A stretch of 7,579 nucleotides of DNA from Escherichia coli (GTDB taxonomy: Bacteria > Pseudomonadota > Gammaproteobacteria > Enterobacterales > Enterobacteriaceae). Shown here piece by piece: positions 1-7,579 of the stretch. Numbering within the stretch: position 1 is the stretch's first letter; each line of letters starts with the position of its first letter. The stretch lies in the NCBI RefSeq assembly GCF_003334305.1, contig NZ_QOWS01000045.1; one strand, written 5' to 3'. The translations under genes were made by a program, and so were the position numbers. The notes under the pieces are model-generated. The model was not told the origin of the DNA. It worked only from the letters and a program-made list of their open reading frames with translations, and searched no databases.

Positions 1-361
<361 letters not shown>

Positions 362-526: not shown

Positions 527-766
527 CTAACGTCGCATTACCCATTCATTCAGTTCTGACTCCAGCCAGCCAACGGATTGCCTTCCCAAGCGTTTTTGTT
601 TTGGAAATGTTCCATCGTAGCGTGGCGATTTTGGATTAAGCCAGTCGTATATGGTTGAGCGTGAAATTCCCATTTTTTTCATGACATCTTTTAGCCTCAA
701 GATCCTCGGTGAATCAGGAATATTTGCGTAACTGGATGTATGTAAGGAGGGAGGGTTCTGTAACAT
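527..766 (-). CDS. alpA: AlpA-family (phage/island) helix-turn-helix transcriptional regulator / excisionase-like protein
   Basis: The translation contains RILRLKDVMKKMGISRSTIYDWLNPKSPRYDGTFPKQKRLGRQSVGWLESELNEWV, which closely matches the AlpA (Phage_AlpA) core as I recall it (RILRL...TIYDWL...FP...GWxExExxEW). There is an AAGGAA Shine-Dalgarno about 6 nt upstream of ATG 764..766. It has about 12 extra N-terminal residues compared with my recollection of E. coli AlpA, so the exact start is uncertain. Confidence 0.8.
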   Translation of the reverse strand: MLQNPPSLHTSSYANIPDSPRILRLKDVMKKMGISRSTIYDWLNPKSPRYDGTFPKQKRLGRQSVGWLESELNEWVMRR

Positions 767-879
767 CTAGGCTTCCTTAGTATGAGTTTGTTCAGGTGGG
801 TCCATATTGCCAACCACGCTGGGGCTGTCATACACTGGAAGTAACATTAAAATAAAATCACTTTAGGGATTTACTTTTC

Positions 880-1761
880 ATGAAGGATGTGAGTGCGAAT
901 TTTTTTGATGATTTCTATCTGCAAGTTTGTACCGCTTGTGAGGACAAACTTCTTGAGCTGGAATGGAAACTTGAAGTCGAAAAAAAGGAGAGCAACCAGG
1001 ATGTTCTGCGCACTTACAGGCAAAGAGCCTATGATAAAATTGAAGAATTTAAAATTATTGAGTATTCAAAAATACAATGTCAATATTTTGTAGATATGAC
1101 TAATAGCGACAATATACGCTACTCACAAGAGTTTATAAATGTTGATGGAATAATGGTTGAGAAACCTTTTATTTATAAGGAAACATATGCAGAATATCGG
1201 ATTGAAATTCGAGGAAAAATGGACGGGTATAAACTGACAGGATTAGCAAGACTATATGATGCACATTATGAATATATATATCTATCTATGGCTTTAGAAG
1301 ATTTTTACTGGGCGCAGTTCCAATATTCATTGGGCAATAAAAAAGAAAGTTGTAAGTTTCTTCTTGATGCTTATTCTTATATGAATGTCTGTATTTCGCG
1401 AGATGATAACCGAGACTTACCGAGTTTTTATCGATTAAGAAGTGGTTTTGATAAAGTATGCAGAAGAGCGCGCTCAAGCGCTGGAGGGAAAAATAAACTT
1501 GCAGAACTTGAATATATTAAAGATACAGTTGTTATCTTACTTGAAGATATTCCTTCACATAGCGACTGGAAAAATAAACGTCAACTTCTTGAATATTTAA
1601 TGCCCTATATTTGTAATAATGATAAAAAGGTCAATCCAGATAAATGGATAAATGATACAGGCGATAGAGAGGAAACTATCCGCCGCAGACTTAATAAATG
1701 GTCTACAGGTGATCTAAAAGTAGAGATTGATAAAGTCCTAAAGAACAATACTAACAATTAA
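880..1761 (+). CDS. hypothetical protein (293 aa), AT-rich orphan gene of unknown function
   Basis: A long uninterrupted ORF in a visibly AT-rich segment, which in AT-rich DNA is unlikely by chance. The translation is rich in K/E/Y/N/D with no motif I recognise. A possible sigma70 promoter TTGCCA-N18-TACACT lies at 807..836. The RBS is weak (AGGGA about 13 nt upstream of the ATG). Confidence 0.55.
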   Translation: MKDVSANFFDDFYLQVCTACEDKLLELEWKLEVEKKESNQDVLRTYRQRAYDKIEEFKIIEYSKIQCQYFVDMTNSDNIRYSQEFINVDGIMVEKPFIYKETYAEYRIEIRGKMDGYKLTGLARLYDAHYEYIYLSMALEDFYWAQFQYSLGNKKESCKFLLDAYSYMNVCISRDDNRDLPSFYRLRSGFDKVCRRARSSAGGKNKLAELEYIKDTVVILLEDIPSHSDWKNKRQLLEYLMPYICNNDKKVNPDKWINDTGDREETIRRRLNKWSTGDLKVEIDKVLKNNTNN

Positions 1762-1992
1762 TATTATTATGGTTTTGATATTTTTATGTCTATCAGGAGG
1801 GCTACTATACGATCAGTCTTGATGGGTTTGAAATTACATCGCTATGAAAATACCCCACATAAATCTATTGGAAAACCAATCATTGTTAATATGACTATTG
1901 TTATGATGACTGTTGTAATTGTGTCTACACGAGAAATTGAATGAAATTTATAGGTTTGAAGTAGCCTTAGTGGTAGTCGAAAATAATTATGT

Positions 1993-2025
1993 AAATGGGC
2001 CTGCATTTTGCAAGAAGGCCCATTT
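1993..2025 (-). terminator. Candidate intrinsic terminator hairpin (AAATGGGCC - 15-nt loop - GGCCCATTT) closing the minus-strand cassette
   Basis: A 9-bp perfect inverted repeat starts 4 nt after the stop of the 2029..2343 ORF. On the minus-strand transcript it is followed by ACAUAAUUAUUUU (a moderately U-rich tract). It sits between convergent genes. Confidence 0.35.
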
Positions 2026-2028
2026 ACG

Positions 2029-2343
2029 TCAGGGGTAAATTATATATCCCATAATCGCACAGATTAACCGGTAATCACTCACGTAGAAGATTTCCGGATT
2101 CTCAGTGCTTTGTTCACCGATAAAGAAGACTTGAGCTCTCTCTTTAGCTTTTTTATTTACTGCTTCTTTTGCTTCTTCCTGCACAGTTTCAAGCTCATTC
2201 AAAAGCATAGTCTTTTTTGGCTTTTGACCAGTCTCCCCACTCAATGTGTAGTTTATAGCTACGCGAGGGCTTAAACTTACCAGATTCGTCTTTTGCCCAT
2301 TCTCCCGAGAGCGGAATGACAATTCGGTTTTCGTCTTGCTCAA
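2029..2343 (-). CDS. hypothetical small protein; either an independent or translationally coupled ORF (alternative ATG at 2206..2208 gives 59 aa) or the frameshifted C-terminal part of the 2195..2941 gene
   Basis: The ORF overlaps the preceding 248-aa ORF by 149 nt in a different frame. The annotated start is a TTG with no clear RBS. An internal ATG at 2206..2208 overlaps the upstream stop (ATGCTTTTGAATGA), a typical coupling arrangement. The ORF ends 4 nt before the terminator hairpin. Confidence 0.3.
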   Translation of the reverse strand: MSKTKTELSFRSRENGQKTNLVSLSPRVAINYTLSGETGQKPKKTMLLNELETVQEEAKEAVNKKAKERAQVFFIGEQSTENPEIFYVSDYRLICAIMGYIIYP

Positions 2344-2941
2344 ATTTCTGCCATAACAACTGCGAATAAAAAACTCGGCGCTCAGGGTAGGGTTGAACCG
2401 GGTCTTTTAGTTTTTTAAACACGGTCATGTAAGTATCGGCATTAATACCTGGGATATTTAATGACATACCACGGTCATACGGGAAGCGAATAAATGCCCT
2501 ACAAATCTGGCGAATAGCATTAACCGGGCGGCGGGATTGCCGCGCTGGAGCATTTCCCCCGCTGGATGCTGACGATGTAGAACGTATTGGATTGGTGTTG
2601 TTGTCGCTACCAGTAGTGCCAGGATCAACAACGGGTCGTTGTTCAATCAATTTTAACCCTGCGGGCATCAAACCCGGTGCGCTGTCTAGCATGTTGCGGA
2701 CGCTTTTTTTCTGTCCCTGCTTAACCACTGTGCTTTCAGCATCTGCATCACAGTTAATATGCTCTTTTCCAGGCATTTTATTAAACGACGGTCTTTTCTT
2801 ACTTCCTTTTTGCCAAGCGGAAGGATACATCTCAATCCCACATCCCCAGCATACGTAACCGTTCGTATCTACAACATCAAGTAACCAAAGATCTTCTGCC
2901 TCAATAATCTCACTGGTATATTTATTACGTGCAGATTCCAT
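2195..2941 (-). CDS. hypothetical protein with N-terminal Cys/His cluster (CWGC...HINC, zinc-ribbon-like), a low-complexity S/T/G/N-rich linker and a C-terminal domain; probable accessory gene of the upstream NTPase
   Basis: Very strong RBS (AAGGAGA 5 nt upstream of ATG 2939..2941). It starts 45 nt after the stop of the 1283-aa gene on the same strand, consistent with an operon. The CxxC...HxxC spacing was read from the translation; no family is recognised. Confidence 0.65.
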   Translation of the reverse strand: MESARNKYTSEIIEAEDLWLLDVVDTNGYVCWGCGIEMYPSAWQKGSKKRPSFNKMPGKEHINCDADAESTVVKQGQKKSVRNMLDSAPGLMPAGLKLIEQRPVVDPGTTGSDNNTNPIRSTSSASSGGNAPARQSRRPVNAIRQICRAFIRFPYDRGMSLNIPGINADTYMTVFKKLKDPVQPYPERRVFYSQLLWQKFEQDENRIVIPLSGEWAKDESGKFKPSRSYKLHIEWGDWSKAKKDYAFE

Positions 2942-2986
2942 GATTTCTCCTTTAAACAGAATTCCTGTGAAGACGGCAACTAGCCT

Positions 2987-5900
2987 TTATTCAAACCGTT
3001 GTTCCAATGCCTCATCTTCCAATCGCTCACGTTCTTTTTCCTTTTCAACCCAGTCAGTCAGTTTTTCATAAACAGCTCTAGCCGACTTAGAAATGTCTGC
3101 ACGCTCGTGGGTGACCAACTGGCCTATCGCTTCAACCCTAGGTTGCATCACGTTCGCACGACTACCGAACCATGATGAAGGTGCTACGTGTTCGGCAAAG
3201 ATCTCAAGGACGGCTCGTGGCTCGGGTGAGGCTTCTAGAAATCTCAGAGCATCATCCTGCAAGCAAATAGGACTTTGCTCCCCGTCTTTTGACCATAGAT
3301 TAATACCTGAAGCGACTGAAGCCCAAACCTGAGGGTCTTTAGTGGTCCTGCACCATTCAATCAAAATATCTACATCGATTTTCGCAATAGGAGACTGATG
3401 TGAATCATCATGATTGATGAAATGCAGCCGCCTCTGTTGTTGATCCTCCGTACCATCAAAAATGCGACTGAGAAATTCTTTTGGCATCCATGCAGCGGTG
3501 ATACCGATAGCGTCTTCGAAAGAATAAATGTAGCCAAAATGCTCATCAACAACAGCGAAGATTGTATTCAGCCATTCTAGCTTTTCAGCCTCGTTGCCAT
3601 CGAAGCGCAATGTGGCATCGATAACACGTTCCATTGCATAATCCAGATATCCGCCGAGATCGTTGTGATCTCTTTGGAACCTCTGGATTGCAGCGGATAT
3701 TCCGATTGTTCGTAGCGCAAGACCTAGTGTATCCGTAGCATCTCCTTTATCAGCTAGTTTCATACTCAGTGCTTCCAATACTACTTCATCACCATTCGGT
3801 TTACTCAGCAGCCTTTGAGCTAGCTCGAGGACCCTGCTTTCTGGCAAATTAGAGAATTGCTCACCCCACAGAATTGCCCCATACATATGGGGCTGTATGT
3901 CAGAGTCATCCAGAAGCGACATGCAACGATCCAGATCGATTTCAGTAAACTCCTGCCAAGGATGAAGGTTGACTAATTCGAATCGAAGTTCGGAATGTTG
4001 TGCACACTGATCGAGCAGTTCCTGCGCTAATGCTGAATCGATAGAATGAGTCTCTTCAATGAAACCTCGAATGACCGAAACATCACGTTGAGATTTGTGT
4101 TGTAGATCCAATTGAATGACTAGTTGTTGCCAATAAATTCGTAGGTCAGGAGCCCCGTTAGCTAAGCCTTTACCAAATTCGACGCGATACGGCATTCCAT
4201 CCCGCAAAAAAAGATTAGGGCACAACTCATCAAGTCCATGGGAAGATACTGCAAATTCGTGCCCCAACTTGAAAGCTTTGGCACAAAGTATTTTCCTGAT
4301 TTCACTGAATTTATTAGTTCCTTGGTGCTCATAATCAGCATCTAGAGCCCAAAAATCGCGCCTATTACTGAGTACATAAGCCATGATTGCCGAAACCAAG
4401 TCTTTAGGTTCTAATTCTCGTTCCAATGTCACAAGTATTTCCGGCAATGGTTCTACGTCTTCGTTATCTTTTCTTTTTGTATGGAAAAAGTAGATTGTTG
4501 AGCGGACAGCTTTCCAGCCTTCACCCCAAGGGCGATGGGCATGTAACTTACGAGCCGCATCAATTAATTTTGACCTTATTCCTCCATGACGCCAAATCCA
4601 GCGAAATTTATCAGCCAAGATCCGCCTGGCATCATCTTCAAGCTCGGGCACTCCTGAGGTTCCTAATCTCACCAAAATATCGATGAAGGCGAATAGCCAC
4701 GCAACAAGTTCATCGTAACTGGGTCGAAATCCATAATCTCTTGGCCTAGCACCAAACTCATTAATTCCGAATCCTGTCCACGGAGGTCCGCCGAGAGCAG
4801 TTTCAAGCATTTCGATCCCCATCCTTCTACGTTCGGCCATACTTGAATCAATGCATTCATTCATGATCGCAACACGTTGTTCTAAAGAGGCATGGGTACC
4901 GGATAGATAAGGTTGGAAAAACCTCTTTATCTTATTTCGAGCCGAATCATAATTATTGCTCGCGCTTTCCTGGTCTGCGATACGGATTAAGAGCTTAATG
5001 CATCGTTCAAAGTATTTCGATTCATATGCAAGTAACTGCAACAATTTGATAATTGCTGTTCGTTGTGGGTTGTAGCGTGATTTAAAATGCTCAAAATTAG
5101 ACGTAACAAGCGTTTCTTCAATCCTCTCAAGCAAAGCTCCTGGGGCAACTGGAGCGATATAATTTAGAATGCGTGTCGATACATCATCTAGGTCTATTAT
5201 TTTTCCAAGCAGCCCTTCGGGCTGTAACCAAGCTTCAACAATCTCTTTAGCCACAGCATGGCTATGCAATAGTCCCAACCTGTGCGCGAACGACATCAAT
5301 AATCGTTGCCGATCCGGAGCTTCAAAGGTCGTTCTAAGTTGATCAATCGGAATACTATTAAGTGCAGATGCTGCCAACTTGTTAGCAATGGCATGGGGAA
5401 GGATGGCTCTCCAGTGGGATCTTTTCTGAACAATGTGACGTTCCATCAACTTCGTAACAGCTTTGAATAACTGGATTTTGGGATACCCAGAGAGCACACC
5501 CAATATTTCCAGTTCATCGGTAGCTGCATCTGGACTAGATATCGAGAACGAATACACCAGTGACAATATTTCAGCTTGCTCCCGTAAATGGCCGTCGGGA
5601 TGATTACGTTGTTCAAACAAGCGATTAAACAACTGCGCATCTGAAAGTAGGGCTAAACTCTCACCTTCTTCCACTCTTTCCGCTATAGCCAAAGCCACTC
5701 TTGCATTCCCATCTGCGAACTCTGCAATCCGACGGGCATTATTCTGACCAATAGAAGGGAAGCGACGGATAAGAAGTTGCTCTGCCACGTCTGGACCATC
5801 TGTCTCAATGTGGATGACCTCAGTTGTCTGTGGTTTGTCATCCCTAATGTCGTACTCGATCGTGATGAGACTTACTTCTTTCCCTGCGGCTGATACTTTG

Positions 5901-6838
5901 CTGGCAAGCGAAGCATGGAGTTCTGATGGGCAATTATCAAGGATCATAATTGCTCGCCGGCCTTCAGCGAGCAGGTTATCAAGCATTGCTGTAGCCGACG
6001 GTACTGGCTCATAGCCAGTATCAACATAAATAGCTACTGTTCGGTCAAGCGCATCTGTTCCAACAGTTTCATCAAAGAGCGCCTGAACGATTCGAGTCTT
6101 CCCAACACCAGACAATCCTGTAATACGAACAGCCTTGTTTGTCGAACGGATCAGTGCTCGCATTGGGTTAATTGCTTCATCAATTTTGAGTTTTTGCCCC
6201 TTTCCCGATGGTAAAGTAATGGTTACGCCTGGGGCTGAGATTAAAGTGTCTATAACACCTTGTGGTGGATTGCTCCAGGCTCCGTAGGGTTGCCAACCGG
6301 AATACCCTTGCCCAAGCTTTGCTTTTACCCACAGCATGACTGATGGATGTTGGCGCAACCATTGGATGAGTTTGGAGCGGTCGTAGAAATCAAGATGAAG
6401 ATAACTTTCGTTAGGATCATCTTTTACTGCATCCCTCATCGCTTTGAGACGATCCTTCTTTCCTGACGGCGAGCAATCATCACCCAGGCTGACAATGATG
6501 TAACTGCCTTGCTTTCTGGCTTGTTCAGAAATGATGGGAGAAAGTGCTTTGCCGGTGCCAATTTCCCTCTCAATTGCAGACTTAGGCATCTTATGTTTCT
6601 TTGCCTGAAAGACCGTATCAGGTCTTACAAGAAAGCCTGCTTTCAGTTGATCAATTGGAACCTGAACATGGATGTCAATTCCTCCGTCAGGGGCTGTAAT
6701 TGAACCAGACCAATTTACACATGCTGGGCTATGGCCGTGCATTGCCACTTCAGCTTCTGCTAGCCGAGCGATCAGCTCTTCCAGCTGGATATCGGAGAGC
6801 CGAAGTAATTCGTCCTTTTCAATGTCAAAGATTGCCAC
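2987..6838 (-). CDS. Large multidomain defence-type protein: N-terminal Mrr-like PD-(D/E)xK nuclease domain + STAND/AAA+-type P-loop NTPase + long C-terminal helical (probable sensor) region; Avs-like antiviral STAND candidate
   Basis: A 1283-aa ORF with no internal stop. The Mrr-like signature is DGGID (aa 51-55, nt 6674..6688) plus QAK (aa 78-80, nt 6599..6607). Walker A GLSGVGKT is at aa 241-248 (nt 6095..6118), Walker B IMILDN around aa 297-302 (nt 5933..5950) and a GNAR lid/sensor-like motif at aa 377-380 (nt 5699..5710). The remaining roughly 850 aa are predominantly helical-looking sequence. The start is a GTG with an in-frame TAG 12 nt upstream and a weak SD, so the start codon is uncertain. 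Confidence 0.85.
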   Translation of the reverse strand: MAIFDIEKDELLRLSDIQLEELIARLAEAEVAMHGHSPACVNWSGSITAPDGGIDIHVQVPIDQLKAGFLVRPDTVFQAKKHKMPKSAIEREIGTGKALSPIISEQARKQGSYIIVSLGDDCSPSGKKDRLKAMRDAVKDDPNESYLHLDFYDRSKLIQWLRQHPSVMLWVKAKLGQGYSGWQPYGAWSNPPQGVIDTLISAPGVTITLPSGKGQKLKIDEAINPMRALIRSTNKAVRITGLSGVGKTRIVQALFDETVGTDALDRTVAIYVDTGYEPVPSATAMLDNLLAEGRRAIMILDNCPSELHASLASKVSAAGKEVSLITIEYDIRDDKPQTTEVIHIETDGPDVAEQLLIRRFPSIGQNNARRIAEFADGNARVALAIAERVEEGESLALLSDAQLFNRLFEQRNHPDGHLREQAEILSLVYSFSISSPDAATDELEILGVLSGYPKIQLFKAVTKLMERHIVQKRSHWRAILPHAIANKLAASALNSIPIDQLRTTFEAPDRQRLLMSFAHRLGLLHSHAVAKEIVEAWLQPEGLLGKIIDLDDVSTRILNYIAPVAPGALLERIEETLVTSNFEHFKSRYNPQRTAIIKLLQLLAYESKYFERCIKLLIRIADQESASNNYDSARNKIKRFFQPYLSGTHASLEQRVAIMNECIDSSMAERRRMGIEMLETALGGPPWTGFGINEFGARPRDYGFRPSYDELVAWLFAFIDILVRLGTSGVPELEDDARRILADKFRWIWRHGGIRSKLIDAARKLHAHRPWGEGWKAVRSTIYFFHTKRKDNEDVEPLPEILVTLERELEPKDLVSAIMAYVLSNRRDFWALDADYEHQGTNKFSEIRKILCAKAFKLGHEFAVSSHGLDELCPNLFLRDGMPYRVEFGKGLANGAPDLRIYWQQLVIQLDLQHKSQRDVSVIRGFIEETHSIDSALAQELLDQCAQHSELRFELVNLHPWQEFTEIDLDRCMSLLDDSDIQPHMYGAILWGEQFSNLPESRVLELAQRLLSKPNGDEVVLEALSMKLADKGDATDTLGLALRTIGISAAIQRFQRDHNDLGGYLDYAMERVIDATLRFDGNEAEKLEWLNTIFAVVDEHFGYIYSFEDAIGITAAWMPKEFLSRIFDGTEDQQQRRLHFINHDDSHQSPIAKIDVDILIEWCRTTKDPQVWASVASGINLWSKDGEQSPICLQDDALRFLEASPEPRAVLEIFAEHVAPSSWFGSRANVMQPRVEAIGQLVTHERADISKSARAVYEKLTDWVEKEKERERLEDEALEQRFE

Positions 6839-7232
6839 TTTTAAACCCTATAAAAGATATTGCGACCATAGAAAAAGTTGCTCTTAGTCTAACCAATGAG
6901 GGAAGAGATGTCCGCTGAACATTTACAATTAAAACCATCCACTTCAATTGGTTAAGATGTTCTGACTCAGAACTGTGATGTCGATCATACCTACTTTTAC
7001 GTAGAGCTATCAGTATGTATGAAACTAAGGTCTAGTATGAACAAAGGACAGGCTCATGCTTTATATGACTGTGAGGTTAACGAGCATTCTAGGTGCAAAA
7101 AGTTCCACTAACTTGATGATTTTTTATTCTTGAGGTGGTTTAGTGCGAGTTTAAAAATTTGGCTAATGTTTAAGATCAATAAATAAGTCCTGATTTTTTA
7201 CTCTTTAGCAATTTTGTTAGCATTTTGTGTAC

Positions 7233-7252
7233 ATTAAAAATGAATTTTTAAT
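7233..7252. promoter_or_regulatory. Perfect palindrome ATTAAAAAT-GA-ATTTTTAAT (9-bp arms, 2-bp spacer); candidate operator in the divergent promoter region
   Basis: Read directly from the sequence. It lies about 54 nt upstream of the RBS-equipped ATG at 7306 and within the AT-rich region upstream of the large minus-strand gene. AT-rich DNA gives such palindromes by chance at some rate, hence the low confidence. Confidence 0.25.
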
Positions 7253-7305
7253 ATTAGTTTTTTTTAGATTTGGTTGTTTAAAATTTTATTGGGTGGAGTA
7301 CCAAT

Positions 7306-7540
7306 ATGAAATGGATAAAAAGCACTTAACCTTCAGCAATGGGCAGATTCTATTCCTGCAAAAGTTATTTTTCCAGCACTAATCGCTGATCTTATACGTG
7401 CAACGGCTAACAGTATTACTGAAATTAGATTTCCTAATGGTGATAAGGGACAGGTTAGAGGTTATGACGGTGTACTTAAAGCCGAGGGGGTGGCCCCCTA
7501 TGTGATCTTACCCAGCAATAGTGGACACGCGGCTAAGTGA
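7306..7540 (+). pseudogene. Small plus-strand reading frame interrupted by a frameshift at an A5 run (MKWIKST-stop in frame; 73 stop-free codons follow in the +1 frame)
   Basis: ATG 7306..7308 has a good RBS (GGTGGAG, 7-nt spacer) but hits TAA after 7 codons. The next frame is open from 7319 to TGA 7538..7540 and has no ATG/GTG/TTG near its start. Removing one A from the run at 7317..7321 would fuse the two into a 78-aa ORF. Confidence 0.2.
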
Positions 7541-7567
7541 GTAAACTCTCAGTCAGAGGTGACTCAC

Positions 7568-7579
7568 ATGACAAAAACA
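7568..7579 (+). CDS. 5' end of a plus-strand gene running off the window (MTKT...)
   Basis: ATG 7568..7570 is preceded by GAGGTG (7556..7561) with a 6-nt spacer. Only 4 codons are in the window, so the product is unknown. This ATG is in the same frame as the open stretch 7319..7537, separated only by the TGA at 7538. Confidence 0.3.

Follow-up and report, generated by a model that had tools for sequence, protein, structure and literature searches.

The closest described relative of the gene examined here is yfjH (b2623) in prophage CP4-57 of Escherichia coli K-12, a gene of 'unknown function' (phrog_19089) situated between intA and alpA and transcribed divergently from alpA. Overexpression of AlpA induces excision of CP4-57 (PMC10107115), and H-NS represses the alpA promoter of CP4So, a related Shewanella element (PMC5148205). 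A 7,579-nucleotide stretch of E. coli DNA (contig NZ_QOWS01000045.1 of assembly GCF_003334305.1; hereafter the window) contains the positional counterpart of yfjH, and this gene and its 293-amino-acid (aa) YfjH-like product are both termed X. Previously X was known as a RefSeq hypothetical protein in ~150 complete E. coli genomes, and literature on yfjH, PD-lambda-4, alpA-linked hotspots and CP4-57 excision yielded no study of its function. An earlier reading of the sequence without database searches (i.e. the sequence-only reading) had described X as an AT-rich orphan and possible single-gene immunity or toxin-like cargo of a defence island. Our analysis indicates instead that X is not cargo but a conserved companion of the int-alpA module, bordering a defence hotspot. 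New here are the connection to YfjH, the recognition of int-X-alpA as a module, the placement of X as the alpA-side edge of the hotspot and a pattern of one X allele per cargo.

Gene order was read in 14 distinct contexts and X was beside alpA and transcribed divergently from it in every one (14/14). These contexts covered E. coli, Citrobacter, Photorhabdus, Lelliottia, Budvicia, Intestinirhabdus, Chimaeribacter and the K-12/Raoultella-type islands, and the two genes were separated by 112-128 bp in all but one, a decayed Photorhabdus copy. In this copy (L029, Photorhabdus tasmaniensis, 7455-9923), ~1.5 kb with an open reading frame (ORF) of 283 aa was inserted between alpA and X, whilst X had lost its N-terminus and acquired a frameshift. 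Divergence of X followed that of AlpA at the deep level (Spearman 0.79); the same relationship was tested for X and the integrase and not found (Spearman -0.13). The sequence-only reading had proposed that X shares its promoter region divergently with alpA and is convergent on the defence cassette (i.e. PD-lambda-4/Avs8, genes B and A on the - strand), and both proposals were confirmed for the window (Table 1).

Conservation extended into the alpA-X spacer. Hexamers resembling a sigma-70-type promoter for X (i.e. TTGCC(A/G) and TACACT/TAGACT) were recognisably kept in most distant X-type lineages. The element TTTACTTTT, just ahead of the X start codon, was invariant in 12/12 X-type lineages (the window, L002, L007, L011, L012, L015, L016, L019, L020, L023, L024 and L025), even those with proteins at 23-29% identity; it was absent from the YfjH branch, and no additional copies beyond chance were detected within the window. 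From its position and conservation, TTTACTTTT could be an operator, a translational element or the opposite-strand part of the alpA promoter.

Sequence comparisons placed X in a small Enterobacterales family that forms a diverged branch of the YfjH superfamily (K-12 b2623/phrog_19089). Two features were examined, homology to YfjH and position. Homology was detectable by BLASTP, with 26% identity over 143 columns (E 2e-6) covering the C-terminal 130 residues of X, and by hhalign comparison of the two family profiles, with a probability of 96% over 209 columns (E 4e-9) and of 86% in another comparison. A position divergent from alpA on its integrase side was observed in the window, in K-12 and in all contexts read. 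As X itself had no match to the phrog_19089 hidden Markov model even at E <= 1 (YfjH itself, 1.4e-112), X was assigned to a divergent branch at superfamily level and not to phrog_19089; the most distant member of the X family (i.e. P0027) matched this model at 5.5e-8. YfjH shares with X its place and orientation between a P4-type integrase at ssrA and a divergent alpA, ~210 homologous columns, a similar size, a low GC content and the lack of a Pfam domain. It differs in that identity is only ~26%, the N-terminal ~70 residues of X are unaligned, X pairs with a 79-aa AlpA and not the 70-aa form, and defence cargo parts X from the integrase in window-type islands. The annotated start of K-12 yfjH (L018, NC_000913.3, 4521-4601) is probably 27 codons too far upstream: Met28 is nearly invariant, relatives are ~291 aa long and residue 28 is the first to be covered in the PHROG alignment. 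With a start at Met28 the spacer to alpA measures the family's 124 bp, as opposed to 43 bp with the annotated start.

The X family was found to be small. Only 19 homologue clusters were present among 5.8 billion proteins, each from Enterobacterales and with an identity of 54% or more, and when 1.84 billion representatives were searched exhaustively with a profile there were only 20 matches, six of them full-length; no homologues outside Enterobacterales were found in these large-scale profile searches. A scan of genomes with a narrower X alignment gave matches in only three species-representative genomes. The combined X + YfjH profile retrieved 51 clusters, all 'hypothetical', with no Pfam domain and no domain fusions. 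These 51 Enterobacterales clusters and the distant homology to K-12 YfjH are at odds with the term 'orphan' in the sequence-only reading. Its statement that the 293-aa product has no recognisable motif was upheld: X had no match in Pfam (even at E <= 10), NCBIfam, PADLOC or PHROGs, with 0 families of PADLOC-DB v2 matching at E <= 0.01. Pfam likewise gave nothing significant for YfjH, a sequence search of the PDB with both profiles gave chance-level matches only (E >= 0.39), tblastn of X in phage and plasmid collections gave no match and an Rfam scan of the window was negative.

The identity of the gene downstream of X varied between islands. An integrase gene followed X directly, in convergent orientation and 17-243 bp away, in K-12, the Raoultella-type islands (L021/22), Lelliottia (L019) and Budvicia (L025-27); the Lelliottia and Budvicia islands have unrelated backbones in which the integrase has no neighbouring smpB or ssrA. 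PADLOC identified five different defence cargoes between X and the integrase in islands of the window type at ssrA, i.e. PD-lambda-4/Avs8 in the window and Citrobacter koseri (L007); Hachiman (L002-6); a Lamassu-like SMC system with a PD-Lambda-4_B homologue and a KAP NTPase (L011-14); three ThsB/TIR genes with a patatin phospholipase (L015); and a set of MBL, protease-HamA and HamB genes with a TPR protein (L016/17, L030). Most simply, int-X-alpA would be the ancestral module, and in window-type islands at ssrA the gap between the convergent X and int genes would have come to accept inserted defence systems.

Table 1. Features of the 7,579-nucleotide window around X, in order of position.
Feature	Position	Strand	Description	Basis
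alpA	527..766	-	79 aa, Phage_AlpA helix-turn-helix; constant divergent neighbour of X
alpA-X divergent control region	767..879		113 bp; length conserved	alignments of 9 and 14 lineages
Putative sigma-70-type X promoter	807..836	+	-35 TTGCCA 807-812, 18-nt spacer, -10 TACACT 831-836	consensus scan and alignment
TTTACTTTT	870..878	+	at most 1 base before X start codon	alignment; one occurrence in window
X	880..1761	+	293 aa, ATG start, RefSeq hypothetical protein WP_000655916.1	ORF listing and RefSeq annotation
AT-rich spacer between X and defence cassette	1762..2028		GC 0.33; not conserved between islands with different cargo	sliding identity
Inverted repeat	1991..2027		perfect 12 bp, GTAAATGGGCCT / AGGCCCATTTAC, 13-nt loop; directly past PD-lambda-4 operon end
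PD-lambda-4B (Avs8B)	2029..2941	-	split: 248 aa (2195-2941) and 51 aa (2029-2184)	PADLOC E 2e-164
PD-lambda-4A (Avs8A)	2987..6838	-	1283 aa, STAND NTPase and Mrr nuclease domain	PADLOC E = 0, full length; literature

A marked shift in composition at X, as proposed in the sequence-only reading, was borne out by calculation. The GC content of 880-2030 is 0.334, as compared to 0.451 for 1-879 and 0.450 for 2031-6900, with a binomial z of -8 relative to the PD-lambda-4 region, and the 1151-nt segment with the lowest GC in the full sequence begins at 841. GC at third codon positions is 0.265 in the X ORF versus 0.40-0.44 in alpA and PD-lambda-4A/B. Low GC was not special to the window copy, with values of 0.33-0.38 for X-family genes in six loci and in every host examined. 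The compositional step in the window therefore coincides with both a trait of the X family and a recombination boundary. The sequence-only reading had staked itself on a distinct composition and on homologues confined to mobile contexts; the composition was distinct and every homologue was in a mobile island, such that the general idea survived its own tests although the orphan and cargo readings were not supported.

Recombination was apparent from the contrast between X and its backbone. Between islands, AlpA was 80-100% and the GTPase 92-99% identical at the protein level whereas X was only 54-88% identical. For the window and L015, the integrases are 99.7%, AlpA 92% and X 58% identical with a different cargo; for L007 and L015, AlpA is 100%, the GTPase 98% and X 59.5% identical. 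Sliding DNA identity dropped in several independent pairs from 95-100% to ~70-78% at ~786, just past the alpA start, and was random (~25%) after ~1730-1790. In the L002/L012 pair, the break was inside X at ~1386, producing a mosaic gene. These breakpoints at or inside X indicate that a separate X allele, old and diverged, moves together with each cargo, and the breakpoint at the alpA promoter explains the sharpness of the compositional break. Synonymous divergence (dS) between X alleles was ~0.9-1.2 as compared to 0.02-0.35 for backbone genes, indicating that the alleles are old and not merely fast-evolving. The ratio of non-synonymous to synonymous divergence (dN/dS) was 0.23-0.53 for X and 0.06-0.38 for the GTPase gene, indicative of purifying selection on X that is more relaxed than on the GTPase gene. 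Positions 880-1761 are thus a real protein-coding gene under purifying selection. For the closest pair (i.e. the window and Citrobacter), a local dN/dS of at least 1 was observed over X residues 146-245, and the small counts make this a hint only.

The X protein is hydrophilic (grand average of hydropathy, -0.72) with no transmembrane segment (maximum hydropathy 0.73), and solubility and a nearly all-alpha-helical structure are predicted. Two AlphaFold2 models were generated, with a predicted local distance difference test (pLDDT) score of 73 for the first and of 83.6 (predicted template modelling score, 0.63) for the second, built with a 32-sequence alignment. The model consists of an N-terminal helical hairpin (8-65), a single beta-hairpin (85-94), then a helical bundle (103-209) and, at the C-terminus, a small helical domain (212-291). 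Foldseek comparisons of the model recovered only uncharacterised Enterobacterales relatives from AFDB50 and nothing from the PDB at E <= 0.001. Of the remote-homology searches suggested by the sequence-only reading, profile comparison links X to YfjH and structure comparison gave no informative fold. Examination of X for a repressor of the Stl-like or CI-like type detected no helix-turn-helix (HTH) motif with Pfam at E <= 10 or Foldseek against the PDB at E <= 0.001. In the 32-sequence alignment of X and YfjH proteins, only W144 and G202 were invariant, with G90, K95, Y99, A138, G203, K206, W230, K233 and W274 nearly invariant; no D, E, H, C or S was present among these residues. The lack of a conserved acidic, His, Cys or Ser residue suggests that X may act by binding or scaffolding, and not as an enzyme or classical toxin. 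An invariant S-S-x-G-G-x-x-K stretch was considered as a Walker A motif and as a helix-hairpin-helix or KGG stress repeat; all were dropped on inspection by eye, the Walker A assignment for wrong spacing and an all-alpha fold.

The 7.6-kb window is 100% identical to E. coli chromosomes, and 130 of 5,426 complete genomes contain at least 80% of its length. Of 149 E. coli genomes, 140 carried 80% or more of the query segment at >=99% identity, which together with dN/dS and the promoter-like hexamers speaks for a real gene at X. In strain ECOR29, it sits in an island at ssrA (transfer-messenger RNA), between smpB/ssrA and the gab operon side. The order of genes is an insertion sequence (IS) of the IS3 family, a yfjP-like GTPase gene without its C-terminus, alpA, X, ORFs of 51, 248 and 1283 aa, a small remnant gene, a second IS3, an integrase gene without its C-terminus and ssrA. 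The two IS3-family copies, in opposite orientations, bracket the segment (window 1-5 and 7567-7579; L001 13828-15005 and 22567-23729) and truncate the GTPase gene (window 62-361) on one side and the integrase gene on the other, indicating that the ECOR29 island is eroded and probably unable to excise by itself. Insertions of IS1, ISEc23 or IS100 are also found in the region in other strains. The remnant gene (window 7306-7540, + strand; 77 aa in ECOR29, WP_000871156.1) is an N-terminal portion cut by IS3, and is frameshifted in the window by one extra A, relative to ECOR29, in an A-run (~7316-7320). Positions 6900-7500 are likewise AT-rich (GC 0.30-0.36) and presumably contain the Avs8 promoter.

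The neighbouring PD-lambda-4 system has been renamed Avs8 in recent preprints, which describe a sensor of major capsid proteins, a STAND NTPase that carries an Mrr nuclease domain. As a two-gene operon (A+B), Avs8 is protective alone in MG1655 (bioRxiv 10.1101/2025.07.02.662641), implying that X is not a missing part of the system. Linkage of X to PD-lambda-4 is nearly complete in E. coli (the X allele in 149 genomes, PD-lambda-4 in 159), but X matches neither of the PADLOC models and X homologues also accompany four other systems. A role for X as a third PD-lambda-4 component was rejected, given that the published system has two genes and X is found with other cargoes. In the window, the 248-aa product of the split B gene covers positions 1-245 of the 303-position PADLOC profile; the full 303 positions are present in this profile and in the Citrobacter and L012 proteins. 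The split is attributable to one extra base in a T-run at 2213-2218 (T6 on the + strand versus five in C. koseri L007), and the region is carried at >=99% identity by nearly all of the 159 matching E. coli genomes. A full-length PD-Lambda-4_B homologue (PADLOC E 2.6e-185) occurs downstream of the Lamassu-like LmuB system in L011/L012, with 77-78% nucleotide identity to window 2033-2951, and adjoins a KAP-family NTPase gene, not Avs8A (L012, 18228-19160 and 19266 onward; L011, 18697-19614 and 19738 onward). This arrangement suggests that the B component may be common to different NTPase sensors.

The AT-rich spacer between X and this operon contains a 52-aa ORF at 1786-1944 that is unannotated in RefSeq. 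Its inverted repeat resembles a terminator hairpin but has no T-run, which is why it was not called by the terminator scan. Imperfect direct repeats were also present in two pairs (1758-1779/1886-1907 and 1819-1832/1947-1960), and their common offset of 128 nt suggests an old duplication of ~128 bp inside the spacer.

Alterations in AlpA or integrase activity could be the outcome of X expression. We tentatively favour, at somewhat less than an even chance, a reading in which X assists or regulates the AlpA/Int switch without being an enzyme, and in which the AT-rich DNA of the gene may add silencing in cis. This preference derives from the universal, fixed-geometry pairing of X with alpA, and ancestrally with the integrase, together with the published work on AlpA and H-NS. 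By binding or regulation, X would modulate the expression or activity of alpA or int and hence island excision or induction, and would not be an immune effector. The AT-rich body and promoter of X may in addition expose the alpA control region to H-NS/Hha-type silencing. CP4So is similar in being integrated at ssrA and in encoding AlpA and IntA, and its silenced alpA control region fits the AT-rich stretch that extends from the alpA promoter here, but CP4So is a Shewanella element and X homologues were found only in Enterobacterales.

Several observations weigh against a role in the AlpA/Int switch. No DNA-binding or other domain was detected in X with Pfam at E <= 10, and the fold searches yielded only generic helical bundles or uncharacterised relatives. 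As the X family is tiny, most natural alpA-int modules lack X, which is consequently not essential for AlpA/Int. The intergenic sequence of L016 is 93-98% like that of the window (two sliding windows) while the X proteins are 56-57% identical, arguing weakly against allele-specific recognition of an operator. Co-divergence of X and AlpA could be obtained from adjacency alone, and truncation of the integrase by IS3 makes a role in excision moot in the window's host. Finally, the only experimental hint for YfjH points elsewhere, as its overexpression blocks RcaT, the toxin of retron-Sen2 (bioRxiv 10.1101/2020.06.22.160242).

The same finding, also made in that study for other prophage genes (reviewed in PMC11951105), raises the main alternative, though an unlikely one, that X and YfjH are counter-defence proteins that neutralise immune effectors of the host or of rivals to the benefit of the island or a helper phage. 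The fast evolution of X, including the local dN/dS of at least 1, its AT-richness and allelic diversity, and its resemblance to a non-enzymatic binder are all consistent with such a function. The RcaT phenotype may not carry over to X at ~26% identity to YfjH, however, and overexpression screens also yield indirect blockers, with chaperones and proteases on the same RcaT list. Counter-defence moreover fails to explain why X is so strictly paired with a divergent alpA across a fixed spacer, and relatives of X were not found in the phage and plasmid collections, the usual home of anti-defence genes.

Stl master repressors of SaPI/PICI satellites are situated between the integrase and a divergent regulatory/excision operon, exist as divergent alleles and are largely helical with an N-terminal HTH; stl is co-directional with int. 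X resembles these repressors, by analogy and not homology, in gene position, in the presence of highly divergent alleles in otherwise similar islands and in its mostly helical structure. It differs in that no HTH was detected, X is convergent with int and there is no sequence or fold similarity. A Stl-like role without an HTH, which we regard as doubtful, would make X and YfjH fold-unclassified sensor-regulators or counter-defence proteins within the int-alpA switch. Such proteins would couple infection or immune activity to AlpA-driven excision or induction by protein-protein contacts, and diverged alleles would recognise different partners.

The cargo function proposed in the sequence-only reading, i.e. 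a stand-alone abortive infection or other single-gene immunity gene, or a toxin-like gene, also has a low probability in our assessment. Residence in a defence island, AT-richness, the lack of a known domain and a monocistronic layout with its own promoter-like site are as expected for such a gene, and allele diversity with relaxed constraint fits an arms race. Yet X is present whatever the cargo, next to any of five types or to none where it directly precedes the integrase, and strict linkage to alpA is not a known property of abortive infection genes. No match to X was found in PADLOC or in the phage and plasmid collections, and no conserved catalytic-type residues, membrane segment or effector-like fold were found in the protein, leaving the immunity or toxin proposal unsupported.

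BrxR/CapW-type WYL regulators stand at the head of diverse defence systems, and X is similarly one conserved gene upstream of many unrelated defence cassettes (an analogy). Control by X of whichever cassette follows is consistent with the presence of a separate X allele for each cargo type and with first cargo genes that are co-directional with X, 420-650 bp downstream, in four of the five types. This role is nevertheless improbable. Cargo is inverted relative to X in the window and Citrobacter, Avs8 is functional without X, and L002 and L012 differ in cargo yet share identical N-terminal two-thirds of X. In contrast to BrxR/CapW, X has no detectable HTH (winged or otherwise) or WYL domain, is tied to alpA rather than to the cargo, and occurs without any cargo before the integrase.

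Very low GC, an eroded host island (flanking IS3 copies, truncated GTPase and integrase genes) and the action of H-NS on the alpA promoter of a related element might be taken to indicate that X is a functionless, H-NS-silenced remnant in decay, with AT-rich DNA of importance only in cis, but this is very improbable for an ORF that has stayed intact in different genera, at 23-88% protein identity and an overall dN/dS well below 1, that has conserved length, start region and promoter-like hexamers, and for which decayed copies are exceptional (L029).

The retention of X on the alpA side of many islands makes this gene a fixed landmark for one edge of the defence hotspot, the other edge being the ssrA integrase. 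The bracket of alpA, X, cargo and int is thereby a simple handle for mining new anti-phage systems of Enterobacterales. For the E. coli K-12 y-gene yfjH, the family is now defined, the genomic role is seen to be conserved and the start codon can probably be corrected. Wider impact is limited by the small size of the family, unless a regulatory or counter-defence role is demonstrated for these proteins.

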